Positions 8,863 through 55,088 of a stretch of DNA of 64,000 nucleotides are shown in pieces (position 1 is the stretch's first letter; every line of letters starts with the position of its first letter). Below the pieces are notes generated by a model, which did no database searches, had not been told where the DNA came from, and saw nothing but the letters and a program-made list of their open reading frames with translations. This DNA is from Betaproteobacteria bacterium RIFCSPLOWO2_02_FULL_63_19 (lineage in GTDB: Bacteria; Pseudomonadota; Gammaproteobacteria; Burkholderiales; SG8-39), in assembly GCA_001770415.1 (NCBI GenBank), contig MEQX01000003.1:8442-72441 (forward strand), given 5' to 3'. The translations under genes were made by a program, and so were the position numbers.

Positions 8863-8919
8863 GGAGGTCGAGTAGGTCGTGGGTTCACCATAGCACGGGG
8901 CCGCCGTACCGCAACCCGC

Positions 8920-10122: not shown

Positions 10123-10341
10123 TCAGGGCGCTTGGTCCAGCCGGAAAAGCCTGTGCGCGTTGGTACGTCCTATCTTCTCGCGGTCGGCGTCGCTGATCGA
10201 CGCCACGTCGAACCAGTCGGCCGCGTGGTCTATGTTCTCGAACGGCCAGTCGATCCAGTGGTCTTTGGGCGCGAAAACCGCCGAATCCATGACCGTGTCT
10301 TCGATTGCGAAGTGCTCTTCGAGTCCGATCTTGCCTTGCAT
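10123..10341 (-). pseudogene. in-frame internally deleted remnant of an ACMSD/gamma-resorcylate-decarboxylase-type amidohydrolase
   Basis: The 72-aa ORF joins a family-typical N-terminus (MQGKIGLEEHFAIEDTVMDSAVFAPKDHW) directly to a family-typical C-terminus (DWPFENIDHAADWFDVASISDADREKIGRTNAHRLFRLD). About 250 aa of the TIM-barrel core are absent. Confidence 0.6.
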
Positions 10342-10363
10342 AGCTTGCTTCCTCACTGCGCGT

Positions 10364-11314: not shown

Positions 11315-11485
11315 GGGGTGAAGTATGGCCGAGATTCACCGATCGGTCTGGGACGCCCCGTGAACTCCCGACGAATCGAATCTGTTACCCTCCGCCCCGA
11401 CGGACGCCCTGTGCTGCGGCAACGGGCGAAGCGATACCGTCGCAGGAAATCATCATCCAGATCCGTATTTCCGGAGCAACGCGAA

Positions 11486-17152: not shown

Positions 17153-17406
17153 GAACTGCGCACCCACGTCGCGACGAGACCGTTGTGCGTCCGTAAGCGA
17201 GGGTTCTGCAATCGGCCCTGAGTCCGCGCCGCTCGACGGACCTGCGGCGATTGCCGGTGCGTGAGCGGCGAGCGGTCGATCGCGGTCCTTCGTCGGTTCG
17301 GCAATAGTGACTGCCTGGAGGACACGCGCCGGCCGCCGTGGCCCGATCGGACGATGCGGGCGGTCACAACTGGACAAATCTGTCGAACGACTCAGGGGTA
17401 TTGCAC

Positions 17407-18481
17407 ATGTTGATCTTCAGGCAATTGGTGGACCCGCCTTCGTCCACCTATACGTACCTTCTCGCCGACAGCCGGACTGGAGCAGCGGTGATTATCGACC
17501 CGGTGTTCGAACAGATGCGCCGCGATATGGCGCTGATCAGTGAATTGGGGCTGCGGCTGCAGTATGTGCTCGAAACGCATGCACACGCCGACCACGTAAC
17601 GGGTGCGTGGATGCTCAAGCGCCAGTCCGGATGCCAGATCGCGGTGGCGCGATCGAGCGGCGCCCATGGGGCGGATCGGGGCCTTTCCCACGGCGACAAG
17701 ATCGAATTCGGCACGCGCCATCTTCTGGTGCGCGCGACGCCCGGCCATACCGATGGTTGCGTCACGTACGTACTCGACGACGAGAGCATGGCTTTCACCG
17801 GGGACTGCCTGCTGATCCGCGGCAGCGGAAGGACCGATTTCCAGCAGGGCGATCCCCGTCGCATGTACCGCTCCGTGCATACCCAGATATTCAGCCTGCC
17901 GCAGGCCTGCCTGCTCTACCCCGCTCACGACTACCGGGGACTCACCGTCACCAGTGTTCGCGAAGAGCGGCGCTTCAACCCGCGCCTCGGCGGTGAGATT
18001 AGCGAAGAGGACTTCGTCGGTTACATGAAGAACTTGGCGCTGCCGCACCCGCGGCAGATCGATGTCGCCGTGCCCGCCAATCTTGTTTGCGGCCGGCCCG
18101 ATGATGAGAATCTGGACCTGGCAGCGCCTGACTGGGCGCCGCTCGTCTACACGTTCGCCGGCATTTGGGAAATTCAGCCGCAAAGCCTCGAAGAAGTCGC
18201 CGACACGGTGCAGATCATTGACGTGCGCGAACCGGCCGAGTTCGATGGACCGCTCGGGCGCATTGATGCGGCCCGACCGATCCCTCTCGGAGAACTCGCT
18301 CGCCGCGCCGAGGAAATCGATCGCAGTCGCCCCGTGGTAACGGTCTGTCGCGCTGGGGGGGCGTTCGGCGCAGGCCGTGGCGATACTGCAAAAGGCCGGA
18401 TTTGCCGATATAGCCAACCTCGCGGGAGGCATGCTTCGCTGGAGGGCTGACGGGCACCCGGTCATCGGCGGCGGAGACTAA
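17407..18481 (+). pseudogene. persulfide dioxygenase (ETHE1-like MBL fold) - rhodanese fusion, interrupted by a +1 frameshift in a G7 run (or a sequencing error)
   Basis: The MBL motif ETHAHADHVTG and the ETHE1-like core are intact. The rhodanese domain reads VVTVCRAGG and then goes out of frame at GGGGGGG (18355-18361). Skipping one G restores RSAQAVAILQKAGFADIANLAGGMLRWRADGHPV and a stop at 18479-18481. Confidence 0.75.
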
Positions 18482-30862: not shown

Positions 30863-31370
30863 GCATTGGACAGTCAATCGCGTCGGACCGGTCCAATTTA
30901 TTGATCCTCGACCGATCGCCGCTGCACGTGTCGATCGGGGAGTCGGATGACGGCGCGGCATGGTCGTGCAGCGGTCCGTCGTCTGTTCGGCTGCAACGGG
31001 TTCGATTTCCGCCATCGCGTCGAGCGCAACACGACATTTGGCAACGGCTCCGCCTCGGAACTACCGCGCCTTGGATTCACGCTGGAAGGCACTCCGCCCC
31101 AAGGTGTCCGAATGTCGGCCGATTTCTCGAGTCCCGGGGCTCGGCCGGGACTTAATCGCGTTTCTCGATGCTGCATAGGAAAAAAATGCGGCCGGAAAGC
31201 GAATGCATGCTGTTGAAAGTATTAATCAATATTTGGTCGGACCGCCGTGGTATGTACAAGAAAAATATACTTCGGGTGCGTCACGGTACCCCTGATTGGC
31301 GCCAGACGCGTCTCGGCTATTGGATCTAAGGCATTGACTCGATTGCCGCTTTTTCGCTGATTGCAGTCTG

Positions 31371-31386
31371 TGGCATGGAGGTTGCT
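31371..31386 (+). promoter_or_regulatory. sigma-54 (-24/-12) promoter
   Basis: TGGCATGGAGGTTGCT against the consensus TGGCACG-N4-TTGCW: GG and GC have exact spacing and there is one mismatch in the -24 hexamer. It lies 45 nt upstream of the ATG at 31431. An NtrC-type activator is encoded 9 kb downstream. Confidence 0.6.
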
Positions 31387-31430
31387 GTATTTGGGTCAAA
31401 CGGAAGCGCGAATGCATCGAAGGTGGTCAC

Positions 31431-31892
31431 ATGAGCGAAAAAGCCAAAGTTCTGATCGTCGATGACCAAGAGGTGGTTCGTTTGAGCTATCTCAGGTCGC
31501 TGGGCAGCGAACACTGTAGGGTGGACGTGGCGGCAAGTGGCGAGGAAGCGCTGCTGACGATGCAGCAACGCAAATTCGATCTGGTCCTCCTCGACCTGCG
31601 GATGCCTGGTATGGACGGTATGGACGTGCTTAGGACGATCAAGCAGACGTGGCCCGACACCGAAGTGGTCATGATTACCGGATACCCCACGGTCGAGACG
31701 GCGAAAGAGGCGGTTCGGTTGGGTGCACATGGCTACCTGGCCAAACCACTCGGTCCGGACGATATCGTCAATGCGGCAAACGACGCCGTCATCCAAAAGA
31801 AGTGGACGCTGCGCAAGGACTGCGGGAATGCAGGCCTGGGCACGGGTTTGCACACCGATGAGTGGAAGAAGACCGAGGGCGCTGCTTGCTGA
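31431..31892 (+). CDS. stand-alone response-regulator receiver (CheY-like) protein
   Basis: Contains VLIVDDQ, the phospho-acceptor context LVLLDLRMPGMDG, then VVMITGY and AKP. No output domain is present. Confidence 0.85.
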   Translation: MSEKAKVLIVDDQEVVRLSYLRSLGSEHCRVDVAASGEEALLTMQQRKFDLVLLDLRMPGMDGMDVLRTIKQTWPDTEVVMITGYPTVETAKEAVRLGAHGYLAKPLGPDDIVNAANDAVIQKKWTLRKDCGNAGLGTGLHTDEWKKTEGAAC

Positions 31893-32485
31893 TCGTGTGG
31901 GCTAGATTGCCGTGCGAAGACGCCAAGGCGACGCGTGAAGCGAGTCAGGAGTCATAAATTGTTCGCGGTCGATATTGACGGGATGATCGAAAAGAGCGAC
32001 TAGCGGGGCCCTTTGGCAGGGGTCAACGCTGCAATAACTGCCGAGGAGGGGGCAGGAAGCGCTGAGCAGGCTGGGCAGCGAAAACTACGAAGTGGTTTTC
32101 ACTGGAATAAGAATGCGAATGGATGGCATGAACGGGCTGCAAGTGCCCAGGCGCGTGAACGAGGACCAACCTTGGCTCGCGTGGGCCGTTGTCATCGGTC
32201 CGGCCACGTATGTGCATGGCCGCCGCAATCCGGCGGCAGGCGTTAGCGGATTCTTCTACAAAAAGCCTTGCGCGAGCTCGGTCAAATCCCATTCGGCAAA
32301 GCTCGACCTCCCGGAGCACGCGGCGACGTCGGAATTAAGGTTGTCGCCGCGCCGGAGACGCACGCATGCTGCTGCTTCGGGGGCAGCCGGCCAGATTTCC
32401 TCACGTGAAGTCGCCAATACGACCTCCTAATGACCCCTCTAAACAATAAAGCCGTTTCGAAGCCAAGCAATTTGCGGAGGCACAC

Positions 32486-33649
32486 ATGGTTCTGCTGATC
32501 GTAGTCGTCACGATTATCGTTTTCGTAATTGTCGACTTTTCGCTGCGCGTATATCTACAGAGGAGGCGGGAATTACAGCTCAGGAAAGAACGCGAGAAGG
32601 CTCTTGACATCGGACTGAAACTGGACTTTTCGGAGGAAGCAAAGACTCTCAAGCGAGTGGAGGTCAAGGATCCAAAGGCAAGAATCTTGGCCGTCGACGA
32701 CGAGCCGATAATCCTGGACAGCTTCAGGAAGATTCTCGTCGTCGCTGGCTATAGCATCGACACGGTGGAAAAAGGGAGCGAAGCACTGGGGCTAATTTTG
32801 AAAAATGACTACGACTTCGTTTTTACAGACCTGAAGATGCCGGAAATGGACGGCCTGGAGGTAACCAAGGCAGTCAAGCACCTGCGCCCCGATATAGACG
32901 TGATAGTCATCACCGGATACGCGTCCATCGAAACCGCCGTCGAGACGATGAAGTACGGGGCGATGGACTACGTACAGAAACCATTTACCGAGGACGAACT
33001 CATCGAGTTCTTCAACAAGTCGCTCATCCGGCGCAAGGACCGGATCGAACGTCAAATGAAGCCGACGGTCCGCTTGATCACCCCATCGGTGAAGGAGTCG
33101 GCGTCAATGCACGAGTTCAATGTGCCGGCAGGGATATTCGTCTCTCAGAATCATACCTGGGTCAATATAGAGATGAACGGTACCGCGCGTGTCGGAATAG
33201 ACGATTTCGTACGCAAGATCATCGGAACGATCGATCAGGTCGCGCTCCCGAAACTGAACAAGGAAATAGAAAAGGGCGATCCGCTTTTCTCCATCACAAA
33301 AGATTCTCGAACCATGGACATCGCCTCGCCGATAAGCGGAAAAATCAGTTTGGTAAACGCCGAGCATGTCGAGCATCCGGAATGGATCGGATCAAAGCCG
33401 TTCGAGCTCAGTTGGATGGTCTGTCTCGATCCGTCGAATCTCTCCGAGGAATTGCGTTCGCTGAAGATTGGCGCAGATTCAGTCAACTGGTACAGGAAGG
33501 AAATTGACAGGTACAGCGAAATTGCAACCGCAATCGAGGGAGAAGACGCCGGTACCGGCCGACCGGAGAAGGGAGGTGACAAGGGAGGGAAACCCAGGGC
33601 AGACGAGAAATTCATGGCCGAGTTCGCTAACGCATTTCTGCTGAAATAG
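32486..33649 (+). CDS. membrane-anchored receiver domain fused to a GcvH-like (glycine-cleavage H fold) domain
   Basis: An N-terminal TM helix (LLIVVVTIIVFVIVDF) is followed by a REC domain at about 32678-33030 (ILAVDDEP, FTDLKMPEMDG, VIVITGY, QKP). The region at about 33120-33440 aligns without gaps, by eye, to E. coli GcvH (H.W, GT..VGI, LP, GD, DI..P.SG.I..VN). Confidence 0.8.
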   Translation: MVLLIVVVTIIVFVIVDFSLRVYLQRRRELQLRKEREKALDIGLKLDFSEEAKTLKRVEVKDPKARILAVDDEPIILDSFRKILVVAGYSIDTVEKGSEALGLILKNDYDFVFTDLKMPEMDGLEVTKAVKHLRPDIDVIVITGYASIETAVETMKYGAMDYVQKPFTEDELIEFFNKSLIRRKDRIERQMKPTVRLITPSVKESASMHEFNVPAGIFVSQNHTWVNIEMNGTARVGIDDFVRKIIGTIDQVALPKLNKEIEKGDPLFSITKDSRTMDIASPISGKISLVNAEHVEHPEWIGSKPFELSWMVCLDPSNLSEELRSLKIGADSVNWYRKEIDRYSEIATAIEGEDAGTGRPEKGGDKGGKPRADEKFMAEFANAFLLK

Positions 33650-33701
33650 TCGACACGGTTCGGGAAGCTGTTTGTTCGTCGATTCTCCGAGAGAGGTAGC
33701 C

Positions 33702-34220
33702 ATGATCAAATATCTTTTCGCAACGGTATCGGCAGTAATGTTTGCTGCAGCCGGCCCGCCTGCAGGGGCAGCCCCTCCAAAGGCCGCGGCGCCCGAGACG
33801 GCGGCGTCCGGCGCTGCGTCTTTGAGCGTGGTGGCGCCGGAAATACCGTCGGAAATCATTATTCCGTCTTCGGTGGGCGCGATCAGGTTCCCGCACCAGA
33901 TGCACATAAAAGATCTTTCGGTCAAGTGCGTCGACTGCCACCATCAGATAAACGCCAGGCCATTGAGCACCCCGCATCCGGACTATTTCAGCTCGACCTG
34001 GATCAACTGCAGGACTTGCCACGAGCAATCGGAGAAGCTCTCGAAGAAGGCGTTCGTCTGCTCGGAGTGCCATACGGCCCGGCCGAAAAATATCGCGGAT
34101 GAAACACTCAGCGCAAAAGTGGTGGTTCACAAACAGTGCTGGAAGTGCCACGCGGTGGGCACCGGCAAGGAGGCAAGCAAAGCCTGTGAAAAGTGCCATT
34201 CGGGCAAGAAGCGCTTCTGA
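33702..34220 (+). CDS. periplasmic c3-type multihaem cytochrome (5 CXXCH motifs)
   Basis: It has a signal peptide and the c3-like opening FPHQMHIKDLSVKCVDCHH. The five motifs are CVDCH, CRTCH, CSECH, CWKCH and CEKCH. Confidence 0.85.
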   Translation: MIKYLFATVSAVMFAAAGPPAGAAPPKAAAPETAASGAASLSVVAPEIPSEIIIPSSVGAIRFPHQMHIKDLSVKCVDCHHQINARPLSTPHPDYFSSTWINCRTCHEQSEKLSKKAFVCSECHTARPKNIADETLSAKVVVHKQCWKCHAVGTGKEASKACEKCHSGKKRF

Positions 34221-34264
34221 TCAGGGCTGTTCGATTGATTTTCGGTCTCTGGTAAGGACAGATC

Positions 34265-35149
34265 ATGGATAGAAGACGGTTTTTCGCGACTGCCGGTACC
34301 GCCGCCGGGACGCTGCTGCACATGAAGAAGTCGGAGGCCGCGAACGCCAAGGAGGGCAAGGAGTTTGTCGGCGTGCTCGTCGATACGACAAGGTGCATTG
34401 GGTGCCGAGCCTGCGAAGTTGCCTGTTCGGTGGCATGGAACAATTTTGTTCCGGACGTAAAGAATGACAACGCGCTCGATCATCGCAGAGATACCAGCGA
34501 TAAGCAGTACACGGTCGTCAATCGTTTCAAGACCGAAAAGGGAGATGTATTCGTGAAGAGGCAGTGCATGCATTGCTGGCAGGCGGCTTGTGTCGCGATG
34601 TGCCTGGTGAATGCAATGTACAAGACCAAGGAGGGACCTGTTACCTGGAATGGAGAGAAATGCCTGGGGTGCAGATTTTGCATGGTGGCCTGTCCGTTTG
34701 ACATTCCAAAAGCTGAGTATCTTTCATGGAATCCAAGAATCATGAAGTGCCACATGTGCTATGAGAGACTGCAGGAGGGAAAGAAGCCCGCATGCGTGGA
34801 AGCGTGCCCGGCCGATGCGTTGATGTTCGGTCAAAAGCGAGAACTGATGGAAATCGCACGGCATCGCGTATACAGCCACCCAGACAAATATGTGCACCAG
34901 ATATACGGCGAGCAGGAAGCCGGTGGAACAGGTTGGCTCTACCTCTCCGCCGTTCCATTCGATCAGATAGGGTTCAGAACCGATCTTGGCACGACGCCTT
35001 ATCCAGAATACACGAAACAGTTTCTGGTTTCCGTGCCGCTCGTTCTATTCGGTGTTCCGGCACTGCTGCTAGGGCTGAGCGAGCTGTCGGATAGAAAGAA
35101 TGAAGTTCGCGAAAGCGAAGGATGGACAGAGACGGGGGCGGACGAATGA
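34265..35149 (+). CDS. Tat-exported 4x[4Fe-4S] ferredoxin-like subunit (HmcB/NrfC/DsrO/HybA family) with a C-terminal TM helix
   Basis: It has the twin-arginine signal MDRRRFFATAG. Four cluster motifs are present: CIGCRACEVAC, CMHCWQAACVAMC, CLGCRFCMVACP and CHMC-X11-CVEACP. A hydrophobic tail (FLVSVPLVLFGVPALLLGL) follows. Confidence 0.9.
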   Translation: MDRRRFFATAGTAAGTLLHMKKSEAANAKEGKEFVGVLVDTTRCIGCRACEVACSVAWNNFVPDVKNDNALDHRRDTSDKQYTVVNRFKTEKGDVFVKRQCMHCWQAACVAMCLVNAMYKTKEGPVTWNGEKCLGCRFCMVACPFDIPKAEYLSWNPRIMKCHMCYERLQEGKKPACVEACPADALMFGQKRELMEIARHRVYSHPDKYVHQIYGEQEAGGTGWLYLSAVPFDQIGFRTDLGTTPYPEYTKQFLVSVPLVLFGVPALLLGLSELSDRKNEVRESEGWTETGADE

Positions 35150-36345
35150 ACACCACCGCAATTGGCACAAGCGAATTCAACCGGGTCGCGAGTTTCATTT
35201 GGCAGGAATTGAAGCCGCGGGGCAAGTGGCTTACCCCGTTCAATGTCATCTCCATTCCGATCATATTGCTCGGCATTGGAATCCTGTATTTCCGTTTTGT
35301 ATACGGGATCGGATTCGTCACCAATCTCAACCAATACTACCCGTTGGGTATCTGGATCGGATTTGACGTGGTGACCGGAGTGGCTCTTGCCGGCGGGGCC
35401 TACGTCATCACCTTCGTCGTCTATGTGATGAGAATGGAAAAATATCATTCCATAGTCAGAGTGACGGTCTTGAACGGATTGTTAGCGTACATCTTCTATG
35501 CTGGGGCACTGACACTGGATCTGGGACGGCCCTGGCACATCGTCAATCCGATCATCGGGAATTCGTTCGGCTACAACTCAGTGCTGTTCCTCGTTTCGTG
35601 GCATTTTCTGCTCTATATGCTCACGATGGCGCTGGAGTTTTCGCCGGTCGTTGCGGAATGGGCCCAGCTTGAGAAAGCGCGGAAATTTCTTTCCGGCCTG
35701 ACGCTCGGTGCGGTGATATTCGGTATTACGCTTTCTATTCTGCATCAATCCGGTCTTGGCGCCCTGTTCCTGATGGCCAAGCCGAAGATCCATCCGCTTT
35801 GGTATTCGGAATTCATACCGGTCATGTTCGTCGTGTCAAGCATTTACGCGGGACTCTCGATGATCATATTCGAGGGAACGATCAGCCACAAAGTCTTTAG
35901 AGACCTGCTTGCTGGCCAAGATCATCATCGCTATGAGGAGATCATCCTTGGTCTGGGCAAAGGTGCGGCCATCACGATGTTCGTCTATTACTTCTTCCAG
36001 GCGCTGCTGTTCATACATGAAGAACGCTGGGAACTCATAACGGATGCTTGGGGTTACTGGTATCTCCTCGAGGTCATCGGTCTGGTGCTCATACCCTGTT
36101 TCATGTACGCGTACGCGGTGCGCAACAGGAACCTCGGAATACTCAAGGTGGCGGCCGTCCTGGCCCTGCTGGGCATAATCCTCAACAGGCTGAACGTGAC
36201 CGTCATCGCGTACCGCTGGTATGACGTGGACAAGTATTACCCGTCATGGCAGGAGATCGTCGTGACGCTCACGGTGGTCTTCACCGAGATATGGATCTTC
36301 CGCTGGATTGTTACCCGCATGCCGGTCTTCGGCAAGAGACGATAG
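35146..36345 (+). CDS. NrfD-family polytopic quinone-interacting membrane subunit (HmcC/DsrP-like)
   Basis: 399-aa protein with about 10 TM segments. Its start overlaps the FeS-protein stop (ATGA). The position after a Tat-FeS subunit is the canonical NrfCD-type arrangement. Confidence 0.85.
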   Translation: MNTTAIGTSEFNRVASFIWQELKPRGKWLTPFNVISIPIILLGIGILYFRFVYGIGFVTNLNQYYPLGIWIGFDVVTGVALAGGAYVITFVVYVMRMEKYHSIVRVTVLNGLLAYIFYAGALTLDLGRPWHIVNPIIGNSFGYNSVLFLVSWHFLLYMLTMALEFSPVVAEWAQLEKARKFLSGLTLGAVIFGITLSILHQSGLGALFLMAKPKIHPLWYSEFIPVMFVVSSIYAGLSMIIFEGTISHKVFRDLLAGQDHHRYEEIILGLGKGAAITMFVYYFFQALLFIHEERWELITDAWGYWYLLEVIGLVLIPCFMYAYAVRNRNLGILKVAAVLALLGIILNRLNVTVIAYRWYDVDKYYPSWQEIVVTLTVVFTEIWIFRWIVTRMPVFGKRR

Positions 36346-36354
36346 GAGCCGCGA

Positions 36355-36533
36355 TGGAGTACTACACGTATGTAAACATATTCGAGACCAAGGGCCTGGA
36401 ATACCTCCTGTTGATGTGCTTCTTCGCCCTGTTCATCTATCTGGTGAGATACCTGTCGGGCCCCGGAAAGAAGGATTCGGCTCCCCGTGACGGGAGCGCG
36501 GCGGGCGGCCGGATGAAAGGCGCCGGGCATTGA
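36355..36533 (+). CDS. small single-TM protein (59 aa), possible accessory subunit
   Basis: The ATG lies 9 nt after the nrfD-like stop and is preceded by AGGAG. One TM helix (LEYLLLMCFFALFIYLV) is present. The C-terminal tail lies in a GC-rich patch, so the 3' end is uncertain. Confidence 0.4.
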
Positions 36534-36660
36534 CCGTGCGAGCGGAAGCCAGCGATGAGCGGCGCACCGACGACGAGCGCCGGCGGCATGCGCCGATGAG
36601 GGGCATTGTCCGGGCGCCGTTGCGCGGTCGTCGTCCGGCTGGCGAGCGCGTCGAGCACCG

Positions 36661-38532
36661 ATGAAATTCGCCGGAACCAAGATCGGCCTGAAGCTGGTCC
36701 TTGCGGTCGGCGTCATCACGATCGTCATCATCGGCGCCTTTTCCTACCTGAGCATCAACGCGCAGAGCGATGCGCTGCTCTCGCAGGCCGGAATACACGC
36801 GAACAAGCTGAGCGAGGCGATAAAGAACAGCACGCACACGAGCATGCTCGAGAACAGGAAAGACGAGATTCACGCGATCATCAACACGGTCTCGCACGAA
36901 CCGAGCATTCTCGAGATACGGATATTCAACAAGGAAGGGGTCGTCACGTTCTCGTCGCGGGAGAATTCGACCGGCAAGATGGTCGACAAGCGCGCCGAGA
37001 GCTGCTACGCATGCCACACGGAGAACCAGCCATTGCGAAGGCTTTCGATCGACAAGAGAATGCGCATCTACAGGATCAGTTCGAATTCGCCGCGCATACT
37101 GGCCGTCATCAATCCCATCTACAACGAGCCCTCGTGCTACCAGGCGGCGTGCCATGCACACCGCCGGGACCAGACGGTGCTGGGCGTGCTGGACGTAAAG
37201 ATGGACCTAAAGGACGTCGATCGGCAGATCGAAGACAGCAAACTCAGGTTGATCATCTTTGCCGCCATTGCGACTCTTGCTTTAAGCCTATTCATTGCAT
37301 ATTTCGTGAGACGGTGGGTCGGAAAGCCCGTTAGCGAACTGGTAAAAGCGACCAACCAGGTAAGCCTGGGGAACTTGAATTACACGATAGAAGACCCAGG
37401 GAAGGACGAACTGGGAATCCTGGCCACGTCCTTCAACAAGATGACGAAGAGTCTTGCGGATGCCAAGCTGCAGCTCTTCCAGGCCGACAAGATGGCTTCG
37501 TTAGGGCGGCTTGCCGCCGGCGTAGCTCACGAAATAAATAACCCGCTTACGGGTGTATTGACCTACAGCAGTTTTCTGCTTAAGCGAGTCAAGGACAATC
37601 CAGAACTGCAGGAAAACCTTGAGGTAATAGTTCGAGAAACCATACGGAGCAGGGAGATCGTAAAGAGTCTGCTCGACTTCTCACGGCAATCGATTCCCAA
37701 AAAGCATAGTGCAGACATAAGCAAGATCATCAAGAGCGCAATCGAAGTGGTTTCCAATCAGCTCGTACTCAAGGAAATCCAGCTGGATGCGCAGCTGGAT
37801 GAGTCTTTGCCGGAAATCACGGTTGACGCAAACCAGATCCAGCAGGTGCTAATCAACCTGCTGGTCAACGCAGCGGACGCGATCGGAGAGGGCGGCGGTA
37901 AGATTTCCATCGTTCCATCTCTGATTTCTCTTCCGCCGCACGGTCTGGCGAGGATCAAAGCTGCCGTTTGCCCAAAGAGGCACGACCTGATGGATAACGA
38001 AGTTCGAAGTTACGGGCTGCCGACCGTGAGGCTGAAGGCCATTTCGAAGGGGACAGAGGGGATCATCAACCTGGATCCCATTTATGGAAAGAACCGGCAC
38101 CAGTACGGTTTGGAACTGGATCAAGGAGGGGACTTGCAGTTGTCCTGCCCCCAGTGCAATACGTCATTGATAGACGAATCCATACGGTGCCCGAAATGTC
38201 GTTCGACGGTATACAGTTTCGAAACGCCCCCGGACGGGGTGCTGGAAGGCTGTACGAACCCGGACTGCGGTTGGCAACGCTGGCAGGCAATGGATGATAC
38301 CGGCCAGAAAGATTACATCGAACTGAGGATCGCGGATACGGGTCAGGGGATCCCAAAGGAGGATCTATCCAGGATATTCGAACCGTTCTTCACCACGAAG
38401 GGGCAGTACGGGAATGGCCTGGGACTCGCGGTCATATGGGGAATAATCGACAACCATAACGGAACGATCAGCGTGGAAAGTGAACTCGGCAAGGGGACGG
38501 TGTTCGTCATTCATTTGCCGATGCAGAATTGA
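36661..38532 (+). CDS. sensor histidine kinase: periplasmic loop with haem-c motifs, HAMP, HisKA, and HATPase with a large Cys-rich insertion
   Basis: TM1 and TM2 flank a loop of about 170 aa carrying CYACH (37003-37017) and CYQAACH (37135-37155). It also has a HAMP domain, the H-box GVAHEINNPL, the N-box LLVNAADA, G1 DTGQGI and G2 GNGLGL. Confidence 0.9.
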   Translation: MKFAGTKIGLKLVLAVGVITIVIIGAFSYLSINAQSDALLSQAGIHANKLSEAIKNSTHTSMLENRKDEIHAIINTVSHEPSILEIRIFNKEGVVTFSSRENSTGKMVDKRAESCYACHTENQPLRRLSIDKRMRIYRISSNSPRILAVINPIYNEPSCYQAACHAHRRDQTVLGVLDVKMDLKDVDRQIEDSKLRLIIFAAIATLALSLFIAYFVRRWVGKPVSELVKATNQVSLGNLNYTIEDPGKDELGILATSFNKMTKSLADAKLQLFQADKMASLGRLAAGVAHEINNPLTGVLTYSSFLLKRVKDNPELQENLEVIVRETIRSREIVKSLLDFSRQSIPKKHSADISKIIKSAIEVVSNQLVLKEIQLDAQLDESLPEITVDANQIQQVLINLLVNAADAIGEGGGKISIVPSLISLPPHGLARIKAAVCPKRHDLMDNEVRSYGLPTVRLKAISKGTEGIINLDPIYGKNRHQYGLELDQGGDLQLSCPQCNTSLIDESIRCPKCRSTVYSFETPPDGVLEGCTNPDCGWQRWQAMDDTGQKDYIELRIADTGQGIPKEDLSRIFEPFFTTKGQYGNGLGLAVIWGIIDNHNGTISVESELGKGTVFVIHLPMQN

Positions 38533-38549
38533 TGCCCCGATGCTGGCGG

Positions 38550-38565
38550 GGGCACGAACTATGTG
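38550..38565 (+). promoter_or_regulatory. weak sigma-54-like promoter candidate upstream of the 9-haem cytochrome gene
   Basis: GGGCACGAACTATGTG has a good -24 element (GGCACG) at correct spacing. The -12 element is TGT instead of TGC. It lies 57 nt upstream of the ATG at 38622. Confidence 0.25.
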
Positions 38566-38621
38566 ACTGCCGGATAGCGCTCGCCGCAAAAGTTATCGTG
38601 ATGCAACGAAAGAGGAGTGAA

Positions 38622-39947
38622 ATGGGCATTGGCCGGAGCAGACTGGAGACAACGGGTACGGCGTTCCACACGGAGTTTGTTGTCGCTGTCGGGATTGCGG
38701 TGTTGGCGGCAGTGCTCACTGTTGCGAGCCCGCGCGCTGGCGCCGCCGAGGGCGCGCTTTCGCAACTGGATCAGCAATGTCTGGCCTGCCATTCCGCAGA
38801 GGGACTCGAGAAGAAGCTTGATAACGGAGAGAAGCTCTCGATGCACGTGGATGGGGCGGCATTTGAGAAATCTGTGCACAACAAGATTGGATGCCCGGTC
38901 TGCCATGCCAATACCTCGTTCGAGAATCATCCTCCGGTCAAGACGAAAATCAGCAGTGTCCGCGAGTATTCGCTTTCGCAGAACAAGGTTTGCGAATCGT
39001 GTCACGCACCAATACTCAAACTGTACGAAAGCAGCATTCATGCCGCGCTTCTGCGCTCGGGGAATGCGTACGCCCCCATATGCACGGACTGCCACAGTCC
39101 CCATGCGGTGATGGCGAAAGCCGCCTATGACAAAGCAAGCGGGACTCCCTGCAGCAAGTGTCACGATCCCATTTTCAAGGCGTACGCCAGCAGTGTGCAT
39201 GGTAACGCCGGCCTGGACTGCTCGAACTGCCACCGTGCTCATGAAGTTACTGCCGCGACCGCGGGAGACCAGTTGAAGGACGCCTGTCTGGCGTGTCACC
39301 AAGGCGCCTTGGACAGCCACAAGACTTGGTTGCCGAATGCCGGCCGGCATTTCGACGCAGTGTCTTGCCCGGCCTGTCATTCGCCTAAAGCCAAGCGCAG
39401 GGTTGACCTCAGGCTATATGACAATGCAGCGCAACAGCGCGTCGCGGAAAAGAAGGGTGTGCCACAGTTCGAAAGCCGCATTCGCCTGGTCGATTCCAAG
39501 GGTTCTGGTTTGGACGCGATGGCGCTGCACAGCCTGCTTACCGGGTTCAACCGTGACGGAACGGACAACAGGACAACGCTGCGGGGCCGACTGGAGGTCA
39601 GCGACGGTGTCGACGCGCATCGACTCGTGCGAAGCAAAGGGGCGATACAGGATTGCGCCAAGTGCCACCGGCAGGGGGCCGATCCGTTCCAGAGCGTCAC
39701 GGTATCCATTGTCGGTCCGGATGGCAGGCCGGTACGCTATGGCGCCAAGCCGGAGGTCCTGAATTCGATGATTTCGGTGGATTCGGTGGGCGGCTTCTAC
39801 GCAATCGGCGGAACGAGGATCAAGCTGCTCGACTGGCTCCTGGCTCTCGCGGTGCTAGGCGGCATAGGCGTGCCGCTCGGCCATCTGACCATAAACTGGC
39901 TTGTAAAGCGATACGCGAAAAGGATCGGCGGCAAGGAGGACTCCTAG
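38622..39947 (+). CDS. membrane-anchored nonahaem cytochrome c
   Basis: The ATG is preceded by AGAGGAG. It has a signal/anchor segment and nine CXXCH motifs (CLACH, CPVCH, CESCH, CTDCH, CSKCH, CSNCH, CLACH, CPACH, CAKCH). A C-terminal TM helix (LLDWLLALAVLGGIGVPLG) is present. Confidence 0.85.
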   Translation: MGIGRSRLETTGTAFHTEFVVAVGIAVLAAVLTVASPRAGAAEGALSQLDQQCLACHSAEGLEKKLDNGEKLSMHVDGAAFEKSVHNKIGCPVCHANTSFENHPPVKTKISSVREYSLSQNKVCESCHAPILKLYESSIHAALLRSGNAYAPICTDCHSPHAVMAKAAYDKASGTPCSKCHDPIFKAYASSVHGNAGLDCSNCHRAHEVTAATAGDQLKDACLACHQGALDSHKTWLPNAGRHFDAVSCPACHSPKAKRRVDLRLYDNAAQQRVAEKKGVPQFESRIRLVDSKGSGLDAMALHSLLTGFNRDGTDNRTTLRGRLEVSDGVDAHRLVRSKGAIQDCAKCHRQGADPFQSVTVSIVGPDGRPVRYGAKPEVLNSMISVDSVGGFYAIGGTRIKLLDWLLALAVLGGIGVPLGHLTINWLVKRYAKRIGGKEDS

Positions 39948-40027
39948 GACGATACGCGATGCGGGGTTGATCAGAGCCGTGCGTCGTCCCGTCAAAGCCG
40001 AGCTCCCATAGGTAGAAGGAATACGCG

Positions 40028-40666
40028 ATGCCAAGAATATATGTTCACCCGCTTCCCGTCAGAATCTGGCACTGGATCAACGCGCTCGGATTCGTGGCGA
40101 TGATCGTCACCGGATTCCAAATACGTTACATCGGATTAATCGATCTGATGTCATTCCGGACGGCGGTGGTCTTGCACGACTGGATCGGTTTCGTACTAAT
40201 CGGCAATTTCTTTATCTGGTTACTGTTCTATCTGTTCTCAGACAAGATCAAGGTGTATCACCCCGAATTGAGCCCGATGAAGCATTTTCGCCAGAGTTTC
40301 CGGCAGGCTCTGTATTACGGCTACGGCATCTTCAAAGGTGAACCCAATCCACACCACGTTAGCGTCTATCAAAAGTTCAATCCAATGCAAAGCATGAGTT
40401 ATCAGGTCATTATGCTGCTCCTGGTGCCACTGCAGTTCTGGACCGGAGTGCTGCTGTGGGACGTCAAGCGCTTTTCGGGAATGATCGATGCGCTCGGAGG
40501 TGTACGGGTGGTAGATACGGCACACGTGCTTATCTTTATCTTCTTTTCGGGATTTATCTTCATACACGTCTACCTGGCTACGCTGGGCCACACTCGCATG
40601 GCTCACATCAAGTCAATGTTCACCGGATATGAGGACATAGACGAAGAACACCCCGCTGGCCGTTGA
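40028..40666 (+). CDS. b-type cytochrome membrane subunit (Ni/Fe-hydrogenase-cytb / PhsC / FdnI-like family)
   Basis: 212-aa protein with 4 TM segments. The family-typical opening is VRIWHWINALGFVAMIVTGFQI, with conserved His residues in TM helices (HW, HD, HVLIF, HVYLA). Confidence 0.85.
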   Translation: MPRIYVHPLPVRIWHWINALGFVAMIVTGFQIRYIGLIDLMSFRTAVVLHDWIGFVLIGNFFIWLLFYLFSDKIKVYHPELSPMKHFRQSFRQALYYGYGIFKGEPNPHHVSVYQKFNPMQSMSYQVIMLLLVPLQFWTGVLLWDVKRFSGMIDALGGVRVVDTAHVLIFIFFSGFIFIHVYLATLGHTRMAHIKSMFTGYEDIDEEHPAGR

Positions 40667-40790
40667 TCGAGGCGCGCAGGGGCGCGAGCGCAGGCGCGGC
40701 GGCCGCCGGTTTCCGCAGGTCACCGCGGGCATCCCTGGTTCGATCCGAGGCGCAAGCCTTTCCCGCCGCACGTGTGCGCGCCGCTCCGCG

Positions 40791-42215
40791 TCAGGCGGGC
40801 CGAGACTCTCCGGCATTCTGTTCGGTATCCCGGACGCGGATGCCATACTTCTTCATGAGCGCCTGGAAGTTCGCGCGCTGCATGCCGGTCTCCTCGGCAC
40901 TTCGGGTCACGTTCCATGCGTTTCTCTTCAGGGCCTCGATCACGAAAAGGCGCTCGATGCCTTCAACCGATTTCTCCCGCGCGGTCTTCTTTATCTTCTT
41001 CAGTTCGTCACTGGTTCTGGGTACGTCCAGATCGGGTTGCACCACCAATTCGACGATGTTGACCAGGTGGGCCTGACGGACCATCCGGTCGCCGGCGAGG
41101 ATCACCGCACGGTGGATGGTGTTCTCCAGCTCGCGCACGTTCCCGGGCCAGCCGTAGTTCATCAGCACGCTCATTGCGCCTTCTGAGAATTCTTCCACTT
41201 TCTTTCCAAGTTCTTCGCTGAATACCCTTAGAAAGTGGAAGGCAAGGGCGGGAATGTCGTCTTTCCGTTCGCGCAGCGGCGGCACCGTAATGGGAAAAAT
41301 ATTAATGCGGTAATAGAGGTCCTCACGGAATGTTCCATCGGCTACCATCGCCTTGAGGTCCTTATTGGTGGCGGTGATGAGCCTGAAATTGGCGGCCTGC
41401 GTCCGCGTGTCGCCTACGGCCTTGAATTCGCGTTCCTGGATGACCCGCAGTAGCTTGGCCTGGGTCGAAAGGGTGATGTTGCCTATTTCGTCCAGGAACA
41501 GGGTCCCATTGTCCGCGAGTTCAAACAACCCGCGCTTGTTGGCCACTGCGCCGGTGAACGCGCCCTTGACGTGTCCGAACATCTCACTCTCCAGCAAGTT
41601 CTCGCTCAGCGAGTTGCAGTCAACCGCGACGAAGGGCTTGTCCTTTCTGAGACTGTTGTAGTGGATCGCACGCGCGATCAGTTCCTTTCCGGTTCCGCTA
41701 TCGCCGGCGAGCATGACCGTGCTGCTGGTCGGTGCGCACTTTGCGATCAGCCGGTATACGGTCTGCATCTGCGGGCTGGCCCCGATGATGTTCTCGAAGC
41801 GGTACTTCGAACTGACTTCACTCTTGAGGTTGGTGTTCTCCTGCAGCAGTTGACGCCTCTCTAATGCGCGCTTCACCACCAGTTTCAGTTCATCCGGGTC
41901 GAAGGGCTTGGGCAGGTAGTCGAAAGCGCCCAGCTTCATCGCGCGTACCGCCGTATCAATCTGCGATAGACCGGTGACCATTATTACGTCGATGTCCGGA
42001 TGTGCTTCCTTGACCCTGCGCAGGACTTCCAGCCCGTCGATTCCAGGCATCATGATGTCCAGGATCACGAGGTCGTAGGGGGTTTCATCGATCTCTTGGA
42101 TTGCCTGCAGTCCGTCCCGTACGGCTTCGACGGTGTAATCGCCGCTGCCGAGTATGCGCAGACAGCTTCTGATGATGATTTCTTCGTCGTCGACGACCAG
42201 TATTCTGGCGCTCAT
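40791..42215 (-). CDS. sigma-54-dependent response regulator (NtrC family: REC-AAA+-Fis HTH)
   Basis: REC domain (ILVVDDE, LVILDIMMPGIDG). AAA+ domain with Walker A GDSGTGKE, the GAFTGA loop and RVIQEREF. C-terminal HTH (WNVTRSAEETGMQRANFQALMKKYGI). Confidence 0.95.
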   Translation of the reverse strand: MSARILVVDDEEIIIRSCLRILGSGDYTVEAVRDGLQAIQEIDETPYDLVILDIMMPGIDGLEVLRRVKEAHPDIDVIMVTGLSQIDTAVRAMKLGAFDYLPKPFDPDELKLVVKRALERRQLLQENTNLKSEVSSKYRFENIIGASPQMQTVYRLIAKCAPTSSTVMLAGDSGTGKELIARAIHYNSLRKDKPFVAVDCNSLSENLLESEMFGHVKGAFTGAVANKRGLFELADNGTLFLDEIGNITLSTQAKLLRVIQEREFKAVGDTRTQAANFRLITATNKDLKAMVADGTFREDLYYRINIFPITVPPLRERKDDIPALAFHFLRVFSEELGKKVEEFSEGAMSVLMNYGWPGNVRELENTIHRAVILAGDRMVRQAHLVNIVELVVQPDLDVPRTSDELKKIKKTAREKSVEGIERLFVIEALKRNAWNVTRSAEETGMQRANFQALMKKYGIRVRDTEQNAGESRPA

Positions 42216-43852
42216 TGACTGCTCCCGCTGCTCTCCATCTTTTCCGGCGTCGGCTCGATCGGCAGAAACACGCGGAAGGTCGATCCCTCACCCTCGGTGC
42301 TCTCTACCTCAATCGCGCCGCCGTGTGCCTTCACGATGCCGTGGCTCACGGACAATCCAAGTCCCGTACCGCTTCCTACCTTCTTGGAAGTGAAGAACGG
42401 GTCGAAAACGCGATGAATAATATTTTCCGGGATGCCGCAACCGGTGTCGATGACCGATATCTCCACCATGGGGACAGGCGGCGCGCCCGGTTCGGGTGGC
42501 CTCGGGTCGGGACAGCGGCGGGTGCGCACGGTAATGCCGCCTTTTTCTTCGATTGCGTGCTGCGCGTTGACGAGCAAGTTCATGATTACCTGCTTGAACA
42601 GGTCCTCATCGACCCACACCAACGGTAAGTCAGTGTCGAGTTCGAGGGTGATCTCGATATTGCGTAGGTGTGCGGGTCGCTCGATGATCCGAGTGGTGTC
42701 TTCGATGATCGGATTGAGGTCGGCAAATTTCTTTTCCGGCGGCCTTTCGCGTGCAAAATCCAGCAGCCTGCGGATGATCGCCGCGCAGCGCTTGGTTTCC
42801 CGGATGATCAGGTCCAGGTCCTCCGCGTCCGGGCTATCGTCCGGCAGCTTCTGGCGCAGCAGGTGGGCGAAGGTGAGAATACCGGTCAATGGATTGTTGA
42901 GTTCGTGGGCGATTCCCGCTGCCAGCAGACCTACGGACGCCAGTTTCTCCCCGCGAACAGCTTCGGCCTGCGCAGCGCGCAGTTCGCGGGTCCGTTTTTC
43001 CACTTTCTCTTCCAGTGTGTGAGCCCATTCGTGCAACTCCAGCCTGGATTGCCTGAGCGCTCTGGTCATGGCGTTGAACGATCCGGACAACTGTCCGAAT
43101 TCGTCGTCGCTGCGCACGGGTATTGTCTGTTCGAGGTCTCCGGAGGCAAGCCGTCTGGCACCTTCTTCCAAGTCGTTCAGGGGAACCTGAATCAGGCGAT
43201 GCACGAAGAAGGCGACCATGACAGAGGCCACAACGATGAAGCACAGCGAAAACAGGGCGATGGTCAGCGCATTGGCGCGCAATCCACGGTCGATGTCCTC
43301 CAGCGAATAGACGATATCCAGTACGCCAAGCACGGACGTGGTCTTTGCATGCTGGTGGCAGGCCGCTGTGTAGCACGAGGGCTCGTTGCGTATTACCTCC
43401 ATGCTGCCGAGCATGCGCCTGCCTTCGGGCGTAGTAAATGTCCAAGTTCGTTCATGTCTGGGCACCTGCTCCAGTGGCTGTTTGCTCTGGTGACAGTGGG
43501 AGCAGGCTTCGGCTTTGCGATCCAGCGTCTGCCCGATTTCCGATGCGTCGGTGGAATGCGTGATCTTGCCCTCTTTACTCAGGATTCGGACCTTGTCGAT
43601 GGTGCCCTTGTTGCTGACGTCGCGAATAATCCTGTCGACGTAATCGGGTTGATTCTGAAGCATCGCGTAGCGCGTGCTCTTGGTGATGACCTCGGACAAC
43701 TGGGTGACGCGGTCGGAAACGTTCGCCAGGAGTTCTTGGCGCTGATGCCAGATGACCAGTGCAACGAAGGCCGACATGACCGTCGTTAGCGCAAGTGTCA
43801 AGTACAGGGCGACCTTGAACTTGAGAGTTTCCGGACGCATGCGTGCCTTCAC
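42212..43852 (-). CDS. sensor histidine kinase, paralogue of 36661-38532, with haem-c motifs in the periplasmic loop
   Basis: It has the same architecture. CSHCH (43490-43504) and CYTAACH (43355-43375) lie at equivalent positions. HAMP, H-box GIAHELNNPL, N-box LLVNAQHA, G1 DTGCGI and G2 GTGLGL are present. Its stop overlaps the activator start (ATGA). Confidence 0.9.
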   Translation of the reverse strand: MKARMRPETLKFKVALYLTLALTTVMSAFVALVIWHQRQELLANVSDRVTQLSEVITKSTRYAMLQNQPDYVDRIIRDVSNKGTIDKVRILSKEGKITHSTDASEIGQTLDRKAEACSHCHQSKQPLEQVPRHERTWTFTTPEGRRMLGSMEVIRNEPSCYTAACHQHAKTTSVLGVLDIVYSLEDIDRGLRANALTIALFSLCFIVVASVMVAFFVHRLIQVPLNDLEEGARRLASGDLEQTIPVRSDDEFGQLSGSFNAMTRALRQSRLELHEWAHTLEEKVEKRTRELRAAQAEAVRGEKLASVGLLAAGIAHELNNPLTGILTFAHLLRQKLPDDSPDAEDLDLIIRETKRCAAIIRRLLDFARERPPEKKFADLNPIIEDTTRIIERPAHLRNIEITLELDTDLPLVWVDEDLFKQVIMNLLVNAQHAIEEKGGITVRTRRCPDPRPPEPGAPPVPMVEISVIDTGCGIPENIIHRVFDPFFTSKKVGSGTGLGLSVSHGIVKAHGGAIEVESTEGEGSTFRVFLPIEPTPEKMESSGSSQ

Positions 43853-44213
43853 CTCGCGTGATGTATCGGAGGCGATGGAAGGCTGTCGTCGCGTCTGGGA
43901 AATTCTGGGAACACCGGCTCCACGCAGTTTCGTTTCTCGATCCTCTTGTCCGACGGGTCGGATGGATGATTAGGCTAGCATTGTGACGAGAGCGGCAATT
44001 GACCCGCATCAAACCGGAAGGCGCAGCATTGCGGCCGGTGTCATGCGTGGCGTGCCCGGGCCGGCGGCATCCAACGGGGTGCATCGTCGGCACATCCGGT
44101 ATCCCGAAACCGCATCAACCGGTGACCGGTATGCCGTGTCGCTGCGGAATCCTCGGCGTATGATTCGCGAAAGACTGAATCCGGGAAAACGCAAATCTGT
44201 CGAGGTGAACGAG

Positions 44214-54494: not shown

Positions 54495-55088
54495 ATGGCG
54501 ATGAACGTACCACTCATACTGACGCTCGATTTTCACGGTGTGCCGCACCGCTGGGTGACTTGGCAGCAGGCCTGTTTCTATCACGCCAAGAACCTCGTGG
54601 CATGGACGCTGGGCGAGGCCGCGTTCACGTTTTATGGAGGTGTCAGTCGCGCGACAGGCTCGCGTTCATCGATAACGACGAATTCGATCATTGCCATCCG
54701 AGGCAAGGCGATGGCGATGAAGAGTTTCAGCCAAGTTCCTCCGCTCAACAACCGTGAGCTGTTCCGGCGCGATCGGCATATCTGCGGATATTGCGGTGGA
54801 GAATTCGGATTCATGAGGCTCACGCGCGACCACATCACGCCGGTGTCGCGAGGCGGCCGTGACAGTTGGATGAACGTCGTCACTGCATGCCGGCACTGCA
54901 ACGGACTCAAACGCAACCGCACGCCAGAGGAGGCAGGGCTGCAGCTGCTCTTCACGCCTTATGTTCCAAATAAGGCCGAATACCTCATTCTCACCAACCG
55001 CAAGATCCTCGCGGATCAGATGGGCTTTCTTGTTCAGCATGTGTCGACGCACAGCCGGGTGCTGAAACTCGCCGGCGCCGCGGCCTGA
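54495..55088 (+). CDS. HNH endonuclease
   Basis: Contains CGYCGG...DHI.P.S.GG....N.V.AC..CN..K, the HNH motif. Confidence 0.8.
   Translation: MAMNVPLILTLDFHGVPHRWVTWQQACFYHAKNLVAWTLGEAAFTFYGGVSRATGSRSSITTNSIIAIRGKAMAMKSFSQVPPLNNRELFRRDRHICGYCGGEFGFMRLTRDHITPVSRGGRDSWMNVVTACRHCNGLKRNRTPEEAGLQLLFTPYVPNKAEYLILTNRKILADQMGFLVQHVSTHSRVLKLAGAAA

Follow-up and report, generated by a model that had tools for sequence, protein, structure and literature searches.

A betaproteobacterial gene cluster resembling the Cbc3 and CbcBA/BccR systems of Geobacter, with its own haem-motif regulators

We analysed a 64,000-nucleotide stretch of contig MEQX01000003.1 (positions 8,442 to 72,441, forward strand; hereafter the window) from Betaproteobacteria bacterium RIFCSPLOWO2_02_FULL_63_19, in which eleven genes, g1–g11, lie between 31.4 and 43.9 kb. 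With a probability of about 0.6, we read this block as a respiratory cluster on the chromosome of an uncultured betaproteobacterium from an aquifer, encoding two membrane cytochrome complexes between the quinone pool and the periplasm together with their own haem-motif regulators, and as the betaproteobacterial version of the Cbc3 and CbcBA systems of Geobacter rather than a recent foreign import. The eleven genes were recognised from the open reading frame (ORF) map, translations, and domain scans and match those called independently on metagenome contigs of identical sequence. A first-pass annotation had placed the same genes here and described them as one functional neighbourhood with two quinone-linked modules, a pair of haem-motif kinases, an NtrC-type activator, and a protein in which a receiver is fused to GcvH, assembled from the families of the Hmc/Nhc/Cbc complexes; all of this was borne out. 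Its statement that the combination is not a named complex was not, since g8, g9, and g10 match the genetically characterised cbcBA/bccR genes and g3–g5 match Cbc3 in composition.

The two membrane cytochrome modules

Genes g8 and g9 probably encode a CbcA/CbcB-type bc complex. The product of g8 (38622–39947, forward strand) is a CbcA-like cytochrome c with nine CxxCH motifs and a C-terminal transmembrane (TM) anchor at residues 402–420. The anchor His is part of the motif GVP[LI]GH (GVPLGH in g8), which is conserved in five loci. Both features expected of CbcA, a multihaem c-type cytochrome and a C-terminal TM anchor with a His, were thus found, though with nine haems instead of seven. The protein matched PDB entry 28pb (seven CxxCH motifs, labelled only 'Cytochrome c'; E 1.7e-19), which is presumably the new crystal structure of the seven-haem CbcA cited in a 2026 review. 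The adjoining g9 (40028–40666, forward strand) encodes a b-type cytochrome with four TM helices (Pfam Ni_hydr_CYTB, E 2e-26), for which the best NCBIfam model was of the PhsC type (E 9e-35, below the cut-off); no sequence match was found among solved structures. Its His residues at positions 15, 50, 166, and 180 are invariant and lie within TM segments. The identity of g9 was 84–92% in the orthologous loci L086, L088, and L090 and 69% in Georgfuchsia toluolica, and its 90%-identity cluster comprised 302 members, the named ones being Betaproteobacteria.

Two genes on the reverse strand converge on this pair. Gene g10 (40791–42215) encodes a BccR-like sigma-54 activator with the full NtrC-family layout: receiver, AAA+ domain (Pfam Sigma54_activat, E 5e-69) with GAFTGA at residue 218, plus a helix-turn-helix at the C-terminus, the HTH_8 match being weak (18.5 bits vs. 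a cut-off of 22). It is 74% identical to the protein in the syntenic position in Georgfuchsia. Gene g11 (42212–43840) encodes a putative dihaem-sensor histidine kinase (Pfam HAMP, HisKA, and HATPase_c) with CxxCH at residue 117 and Cx4CH at residue 160; it overlaps g10 by 4 nt and is translationally coupled to it. The protein is a paralogue of the g7 kinase (36% identical).

In Geobacter, CbcBA (Cbc5) is needed for respiring acceptors below about −0.21 V and serves as a menaquinol outlet. Joshi et al. describe CbcA as anchored by a C-terminal helix which supplies a haem-b His, and CbcB as a conserved b cytochrome with four TM helices that mostly bears a 'thiosulfate reductase'-like annotation and has no sequence homology to CbcL. 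They place cbcBA homologues near BccR-like regulators and report that the Geobacter operon depends on sigma-54 and BccR and includes a receiver gene. The block resembles the CbcBA/BccR region (GSU0593–0598) in its multihaem c cytochrome with a His-bearing C-terminal anchor next to a putative 4-TM dihaem b cytochrome of the 'thiosulfate reductase cytochrome b' type, in the adjoining NtrC-family activator, in a candidate sigma-54 promoter in front of small regulatory genes including a receiver, and in a nearby HAMP protein with two haem sites (annotated for CbcD in Geobacter; here the sensor part of g11 and of g7). Besides the haem number of g8, the differences are that the activator gene, divergent in Geobacter, is convergent here and translationally coupled to that of a complete kinase, that CbcC and CbcE are missing from the block, that the promoter in the window is parted from cbcA by six module genes and a pseudogene, and that the host is a betaproteobacterium, in which the role is predicted. 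The CbcL/MtrH/MtoC fusions likewise combine a multihaem c cytochrome with a dihaem b membrane domain at the quinone pool, and c-b cytochromes of the CbcL/MtoC type are known in Betaproteobacteria and in 15 phyla; here, however, c and b are separate proteins and the b domain is PhsC/CbcB-like.

The second module, g3–g6, is likely a Cbc3/Hmc-type complex of a 5-haem cytochrome, an iron-sulfur protein, an NrfD-type subunit, and a small TM protein; all four genes are on the forward strand. Gene g3 (33702–34220, 172 aa) encodes a periplasmic c3/c7-type cytochrome with five CxxCH motifs (Pfam Cytochrome_C7 and Cytochrom_CIII). Among the members of the cluster, conservation is lowest here (54–73% identity); a homologue search gave 495 matches, of which two were named (metagenome-assembled genomes (MAGs) of Betaproteobacteria and Bacteroidetes), with no named Geobacter CbcX. 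The g4 product (34265–35149) is an HmcB/HybA-type protein with a twin-arginine translocation (Tat) motif for export, 16 Cys in four motifs for four [4Fe-4S] clusters, and a C-terminal TM helix at residues 253–271. It scored 333 bits with the NCBIfam model of HmcB (cut-off 420) and 216 bits with that of HybA, and its closest solved structure was FdnH (E 7e-37). Gene g5 (35146–36345) encodes an NrfD-family membrane subunit of the HmcC/HybB type (Pfam NrfD) with ten hydrophobic segments, predicted to be TM helices; its NCBIfam scores were 381 bits for HmcC (cut-off 550) and 238 bits for HybB, and no sequence match was found among solved structures. The 90%-identity cluster of g5 had 227 members, with Betaproteobacteria as the named ones; together with the g9 cluster this contradicts the earlier view that such proteins are unexpected in a betaproteobacterium. 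Gene g6 (36354–36533), also called independently in L001 and L002, encodes a 59-aa single-TM protein which is kept 3′ of the NrfD gene at 55–77% identity in L086, L088, L084, L004, L005, and L009. We take it to be reminiscent of HmcD and NhcD.

Cbc3 (CbcX/V/W, GSU1648–1650) is annotated as a 5-haem cytochrome c, an iron-sulfur subunit, and a b subunit, with no assigned role. Its composition, with these three subunits encoded together, was found in g3–g5, and the five haems of g3 equal the number annotated for CbcX. Cbc3 and the Hmc/Nhc/Tmc complexes share with the block a periplasmic multihaem cytochrome of the c3 type, an HmcB-type protein for four [4Fe-4S] clusters, and an HmcC subunit of the NrfD type. 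In contrast to the Desulfovibrio Hmc/Nhc/Tmc complexes, g3 has 5 haems and not 16, 9, or 4, and in contrast to both Cbc3 and Hmc, the g3–g6 module never occurs without its partners, the g7 kinase and g2 with its receiver and GcvH-like parts. It is very improbable that g3–g6 represent a true Hmc-type complex or the membrane-coupling part of a periplasmic enzyme such as a hydrogenase, formate dehydrogenase, or sulfur/polysulfide reductase. The matches of g4 and g5 to models of HybA/HybB, FdnH, NrfC, DsrO, PsrB/PsrC-type proteins, and HmcB/HmcC speak for such a reading, but neither the block and its surroundings nor any of the orthologous loci contain a catalytic molybdopterin or NiFe subunit, and the constant partners of g4 and g5 are cytochromes and the kinase-receiver pair. 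As for Hmc itself, g4 and g5 are not HmcB and HmcC equivalogs, a 16-haem HmcA is replaced by the 5-haem g3, and no HmcE/HmcF-like gene (CCG, Hdr-like) was present in the block or in the orthologous loci.

Several points weigh against the Cbc3 and CbcBA assignments, which we nevertheless favour. The g4 and g5 proteins are family-level relatives of HmcB and HmcC, below the NCBIfam cut-offs. The assignment of g3–g5 to Cbc3, which we consider probable, is by subunit composition; the likely CbcB-like identity of g9 was set by family, His, and TM features. The identification of entry 28pb with CbcA goes beyond its own label.

Haem-motif kinases, receiver proteins, and the sigma-54 site

The g3–g6 module is enclosed by the genes of a kinase and an unusual receiver protein. 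The g7 product (36661–38532, forward strand) is a histidine kinase in which a putative dihaem sensor loop in the periplasm is followed by HAMP, HisKA, and a split ATPase domain, as recognised from Pfam matches and motifs. In both g7 and g11, CxxCH and Cx4CH motifs lie in a loop of approximately 165 aa between two TM helices (residues 12–30 and 198–216 in g7). Among the 19 such kinases examined, from at least six phyla, CxxCH was present in all and Cx4CH in 17; of the remaining two, one carries an additional residue within the motif and the other is a truncated sequence. The periplasmic loop of g11 would be expected to bind two c-type haems; a search with the kinase sensor loop gave no sequence match among solved structures. 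The g7 subfamily is distinguished from g11 by a Cys-rich insert of approximately 125 aa (CPxC...CPxC) between the N and G1 boxes of the ATPase domain.

The g2 product (32486–33649, forward strand, 387 aa) combines an N-terminal TM helix (residues 2–20), a receiver (Pfam Response_reg, E 3e-30), and a C-terminal GcvH-like domain (Pfam GCV_H, E 2e-19). This domain carries the signature of the H-protein fold, as in GcvH and lipoate-binding H-like proteins, and matched the structures of Escherichia coli GcvH (E 8e-14). Unlike GcvH, it is fused to a receiver and a membrane anchor and lacks the lipoyl Lys: g2 has Ser where E. coli GcvH has this residue, and 12 g2 orthologues from several phyla carry S, D, H, E, N, R, or T there and never Lys. 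The conserved hairpin Lys by which a glycine cleavage H protein is recognised is missing. Features retained across the g2 family are the phospho-acceptor motif and a conserved linker next to the membrane. An AlphaFold2 model of g2 built from a 20-sequence alignment had a mean confidence score (pLDDT) of 56.8, only the GcvH-like part being confident. A literature search for receiver-GcvH fusions returned nothing relevant. More than 100 metagenomic homologues of g2 were 77–84% identical, and those named on long contigs were Betaproteobacteria or Burkholderiales. A scan of a genome collection with the g2 alignment gave few proteobacterial loci and no Geobacter among the matches listed; the pattern KMPEMDG proved generic for receivers. 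GcvH-like domains of the g2 type numbered 1249 representatives at 50% identity (E ≤ 1e-10). They also occur in many proteins of approximately 230 aa with an N-terminal extension and, in three copies, in P0190, a 1391-aa fusion of FAD-oxidase, 4Fe-4S, and CCG (Hdr-like) parts. This hints at a wider link of the GcvH-like fold with redox complexes.

The kinase and the receiver-GcvH protein occur as a pair in at least seven phyla, with HmcBC-like genes adjoining in most loci. Ignavibacteriota, Bacteroidetes, Gammaproteobacteria, and one unclassified MAG have full-length g7 orthologues (50–67% identity) next to g2-like genes; the orthologue in Elusimicrobia (L017, 53%) was detected by tblastn over 99% of g7, and its reading frame breaks after 151 aa. 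The output domain of g2 is not of a DNA-binding kind, so this membrane-tethered receiver with a non-lipoylated H-protein fold would probably act by protein contact at the membrane. We tentatively suggest that g2 and g7 form an undescribed two-component pair for HmcBC/Cbc3-type modules, in which phosphorylated g2 might use its non-lipoylated H-protein fold to dock on the cytoplasmic face of the membrane complex or on the kinase insert and thereby gate electron flow. If so, a respiratory complex would be under a redox valve that acts post-translationally, with an output other than transcription.

A separate regulatory unit stands at the head of the block. Gene g1 (31431–31892, forward strand, 153 aa) encodes a single-domain receiver (Pfam Response_reg, E 4e-32), and 44 nt 5′ of it lies a sigma-54 type −24/−12 element, TGGCATGGAGGTTGCT, at 31371–31386 on the forward strand, with one mismatch. 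The match TGGCATGGAGGTTGC at 31371–31385 is not significant alone, as four such matches were found in the window vs. 5.3 expected. We credit the site because its position is conserved across loci, a single match being expected by chance: TGGCAYGGNNGTTGC precedes the g1-type receiver gene by 38–54 nt in the window, twice in L086, and in L088, L090, and Georgfuchsia (L092), the g1 orthologues of L086, L088, L090, and L092 being 59–82% identical. Scans for terminators and sigma-70 promoters gave counts at or below chance, and an Rfam scan of the window gave no match.

The gap of 593 bp between g1 and g2 holds a decayed receiver-plus-TM-repeat response-regulator gene (32044–32397, forward strand), which the first-pass annotation had missed. 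In tblastn comparisons with two such proteins of L086 (REC2 and REC3) and one of L088 (RECa), it was 40–41% identical over 99–116 aa (E 1e-16 to 6e-18). Its N-terminus is lost, stop codons lie upstream, the TM repeats are gone, and the phospho-acceptor Asp has been replaced (FTDIKMPGM to FTGIRMRMDGM). Intact counterparts are present in L086, L088, and Georgfuchsia. On identical contigs, a family-less 105-aa ORF has been called over the same positions. The intact proteins belong to a response-regulator family whose output part consists of two to four hydrophobic-hairpin repeats ('KNVALFFAAPFIGLAY...'), with members at 7303–8049 and 8379–9377 in L086, 18552–19343 (reverse strand) in L088, and 8358–9119 (reverse strand) in L092. 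They always follow a sigma-54 site and a small receiver gene, and the precomputed gene tables record no Pfam family for the output part.

As to the reach of the sigma-54 site, the first-pass annotation was right about a sigma-54 site before the lone receiver, the site being conserved in position in five orthologous loci, and went too far in calling the whole system sigma-54-controlled. The conserved site precedes only the receiver gene; no site was found 5′ of g2 in any locus, where an alignment of the upstream regions showed only a conserved ribosome-binding region, the scan of the other internal intergenic regions having covered the window and a few loci. In L088, moreover, the receiver unit is on the other strand and faces away from the cytochrome operon. 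In Georgfuchsia, the site directly heads the genes of the receiver, the receiver-TM protein (REC-TM), cbcA, and cbcB, whereas in the window it lies 7 kb 5′ of g8. Conservation thus argues for sigma-54 control of the receiver unit and, in the Georgfuchsia arrangement, of cbcAB; in the window, control of cbcAB would require a read-through of 7 kb, and control of the cytochrome genes by g10 is a proposal. These points weigh against the reading that we favour. In the scheme that we propose, g11 would sense the periplasmic redox state and phosphorylate g10, which would then activate the sigma-54 promoter that heads the receiver unit; in the arrangement of the Georgfuchsia type, taken as ancestral, this promoter heads REC, REC-TM, cbcA, and cbcB. 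Haem binding by the sensors, the phosphotransfer partners, and the extent of the operons are inferred.

A palindrome, GACAATTRTCAA, was found 270–390 nt 5′ of the g2-like gene in L004 (2376–2387), L084 (7621–7632), L088 (9611–9622), and L089 (4666–4677); in these four loci the kinase-NtrC pair is, or seems to be, located directly upstream. The palindrome is absent 5′ of g2 in the window, and one copy occurs elsewhere in L018. We regard it as a candidate regulator-binding site.

Composition, synteny, and origin of the cluster

The block has a G+C content of 0.562 vs. 0.619 in its flanks (0.057 lower). Across the codon positions of 11 block genes and 29 flank genes, G+C was lower in the block by 0.092 at first positions (GC1; p = 6e-5), by 0.062 at second positions (GC2; p = 0.003), and by 0.035 at third positions (GC3; p = 0.02), and G+C at four-fold sites was 0.737 vs. 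0.773. Block proteins contain twice as much Lys and 1.4 times as much Ile as flank proteins, and approximately two thirds as much Ala and Arg. The drop in G+C is thus real and is mainly an amino-acid signature, with third positions near those of the host and no foreign synonymous codon usage. Correlations of tetranucleotide usage were 0.80–0.85 for the block vs. 0.87–0.91 for the flanks, one flank segment going down to 0.79. The first-pass annotation was correct in seeing a lower G+C, and the GC3 and tetranucleotide check which it had proposed found a real difference from the flanks, but a mild one at the synonymous and tetranucleotide levels; its explanation by A/T-rich third positions and its remark on a strong GC3 bias of the neighbouring qor gene were not upheld, qor having a GC3 of 0.69, not above that of block genes. 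The same dip was found in every orthologous cluster of a high-G+C host (L086, L088, L084, L009, L090, and Georgfuchsia) and was absent where the composition of the host itself matches (Ignavibacteriota, Acidobacteriota, Elusimicrobia). The low G+C would result from conserved proteins rich in Lys and Ile and poor in Ala and Arg, the synonymous sites having already drifted to host values.

As the first-pass annotation had noted, the marks of a classical genomic island (integrase or transposase, tRNA target, flanking direct repeats) were not found. There was no tRNA in the 64-kb window, no integrase among the flank genes checked, and no flanking direct repeat; only repeats at chance or paralogue level were seen, and no meaningful direct or inverted repeats were found at the block edges and the g2–g7 junctions. 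A lone HNH endonuclease gene lies at 54495–55088, between a thioredoxin-TPR gene and accA, with no other mobile-element genes near.

The gene order from g2 to g9 is kept in L086/L087 (SG8_41-like), in L088, and in L090; for L084 and L085, the contig stops inside g7 or shortly behind it. These loci differ in their flanks, and the kinase-NtrC pair is either upstream and co-directional or downstream and convergent, with the receiver unit on either side. A contig with a 90.5% identical copy of the adjacent nifJ gene shows the same arrangement as the window. The most informative locus is that of the isolate G. toluolica, where part of the block stands at the same nifJ–DHO_dh locus (nifJ 83% and DHO_dh 80% identical): the sigma-54 site, the receiver (65% identical to g1), REC-TM, the 9-haem cytochrome c (49% to g8), the b cytochrome (69% to g9), and, convergently, the kinase (57%) and the NtrC protein (74%). 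Genes g2–g7 are absent from this nifJ locus, and the cluster has a G+C of 0.530 vs. 0.590 around it. Because Georgfuchsia carries the CbcBA-like half at nifJ without g2–g7, the block is composite, and gene order indicates that its CbcBA-like half is ancestral and syntenic in the lineage and not foreign. The greater divergence of the CbcBA-like proteins (49–74%) relative to nifJ and DHO_dh (80–83%) is as expected for vertical descent. Genes g2–g7 are a separable module nested between the receiver unit and cbcA, and the REC-TM gene at the junction is decayed in the window. Insertion of this module here and its loss in Georgfuchsia both stand as explanations.

An origin of the whole 12.7-kb block as a recent foreign island from a donor of lower G+C, e.g., Desulfuromonadia or Desulfovibrionia, is unlikely. 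The lower G+C and the mildly lower tetranucleotide correlation, the different chromosomal contexts of the orthologous clusters in L086, L088, and L084, the absence of the block in the MAG L091 (nifJ 84% identical), and at least 80% identical copies on short contigs binned to unrelated phyla would all fit such an island. They are outweighed by synonymous sites close to the host, by the syntenic and vertically diverged CbcBA-like half in Georgfuchsia, by the same G+C dip there and in L086, L088, and L090, by the lack of integrase, tRNA, and direct repeats, and by the named closest homologues on long contigs, which are Betaproteobacteria. The earlier description of the block as foreign therefore did not stand. 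L091 was considered as an empty site and rejected; its nifJ is preceded by a peptidase and a Liv transporter and not by qor, so no clean insertion site is definable and the predicted nifJ–qor adjacency was not seen.

Copies of cluster proteins with 55–90% identity (approximately 68% to g3 for P0360) were also noted on contigs of 3–13 kb, L004, L084/L085, P0006, and P0360, which had been binned as Sulfotelmatobacter, Geobacteraceae, Brocadiaceae, and Bacteroidetes. The ntrC and Exo_endo_phos genes next to the L084 cluster are also neighbours in L088, so that mis-binning may be likelier than transfer.

In other phyla, g2-like and g7-like genes occur together, with HmcBC-like genes in most loci and without g8–g11; these loci are from Gammaproteobacteria (L005), Planctomycetia (L009), Acidobacteriota, Ignavibacteriota, and Elusimicrobia. 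Melioribacter sp. Ez-97 (L018) has the order iron-sulfur protein, NrfD, c3-type cytochrome, kinase, REC-GcvH, TM-REC-GcvH, and a fusion of multihaem cytochrome c with cytochrome b, followed by further cytochromes. The fusion stands in place of g8 and g9; because this order combines both module types, their association is old. After both REC-GcvH genes, positions 11342–16867 of L018 encode the 800-aa c-b fusion, a c554-like cytochrome, a 421-aa family-less protein, and a 401-aa multihaem cytochrome, which could form an electron conduit to the cell surface.

Direction of electron flow and other features of the window

The two inner-membrane modules would connect the quinone pool to multihaem cytochromes of the periplasm by electron exchange. 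The most likely role by analogy is an outlet, in which oxidation of quinol feeds periplasmic carriers for low-potential or extracellular acceptors and which would be switched on when the periplasm is reduced. We favour it because of the analogy with CbcBA and the Fe(III)-reducing lifestyle of Georgfuchsia, a cultured Fe(III), Mn(IV), and nitrate reducer. The direction is deduced from relatives, as sequence cannot settle it.

Flow in the opposite direction, the periplasm-to-quinone reading of the first-pass annotation, is a serious rival, although we hold it clearly less probable: reduced periplasmic or extracellular donors such as Fe(II), reduced humics, a partner cell, or an electrode would deliver electrons through low-potential cytochromes to the quinone pool. 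The next nearest enzyme relatives of g4 and g5 after HmcBC, HybA/HybB, pass electrons to quinone, and CbcL/MtoC-type c-b cytochromes, found both in Fe(III) reducers and in Fe(II)-oxidising Betaproteobacteria, are considered bidirectional. The host is a betaproteobacterium of aquifer sediment. Betaproteobacteria mostly use ubiquinone, which is generally more readily reduced than oxidised by bis-His multihaem cytochromes; its potential favours flow from low-potential cytochromes to quinone and not the reverse. Against this direction, CbcBA, the sole genetically tested relative, is an outlet from menaquinol, the cultured relative with the syntenic operon reduces Fe(III), Mn(IV), and nitrate, and no Cyc2/Mto-type oxidation genes were found in the window. 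The outlet role, which we retain, has to contend with the potential of ubiquinone and with the absence of an outer-membrane conduit from the window.

The cluster extends the CbcBA/BccR-type and Cbc3-type systems to Betaproteobacteria and exposes a conserved, unstudied pair of kinase and receiver-GcvH protein. Joshi et al. propose that CbcBA can serve to mark extracellular electron transfer that runs close to the thermodynamic limit and name homologues in Deltaproteobacteria, Calditrichaeota, Bacteroidetes, Verrucomicrobia, and Chloroflexi; Betaproteobacteria are not named there. For iron reduction, the available part of the proteogenomic paper on Georgfuchsia discusses only MtrCAB. The CbcBA/BccR-like operon found here and in Georgfuchsia is a testable candidate for the inner-membrane step, and the kinase with its receiver-GcvH partner is an uncharacterised target for studies of periplasmic redox sensing and quinone-complex control. 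The cluster is abundant in sediment and groundwater metagenomes, with hundreds of near-identical copies, and may for this reason matter for subsurface iron and humic cycling.

Two further genes of the window were noted. Positions 10115–13264 encode a 1049-aa thiamine-pyrophosphate enzyme whose first approximately 480 residues have no Pfam match. Positions 17338–18450 encode a metallo-beta-lactamase–rhodanese fusion with a persulfide dioxygenase-like architecture, near genes for a GCS2 glutamate-cysteine ligase and a TctABC (Bug-type) transporter.

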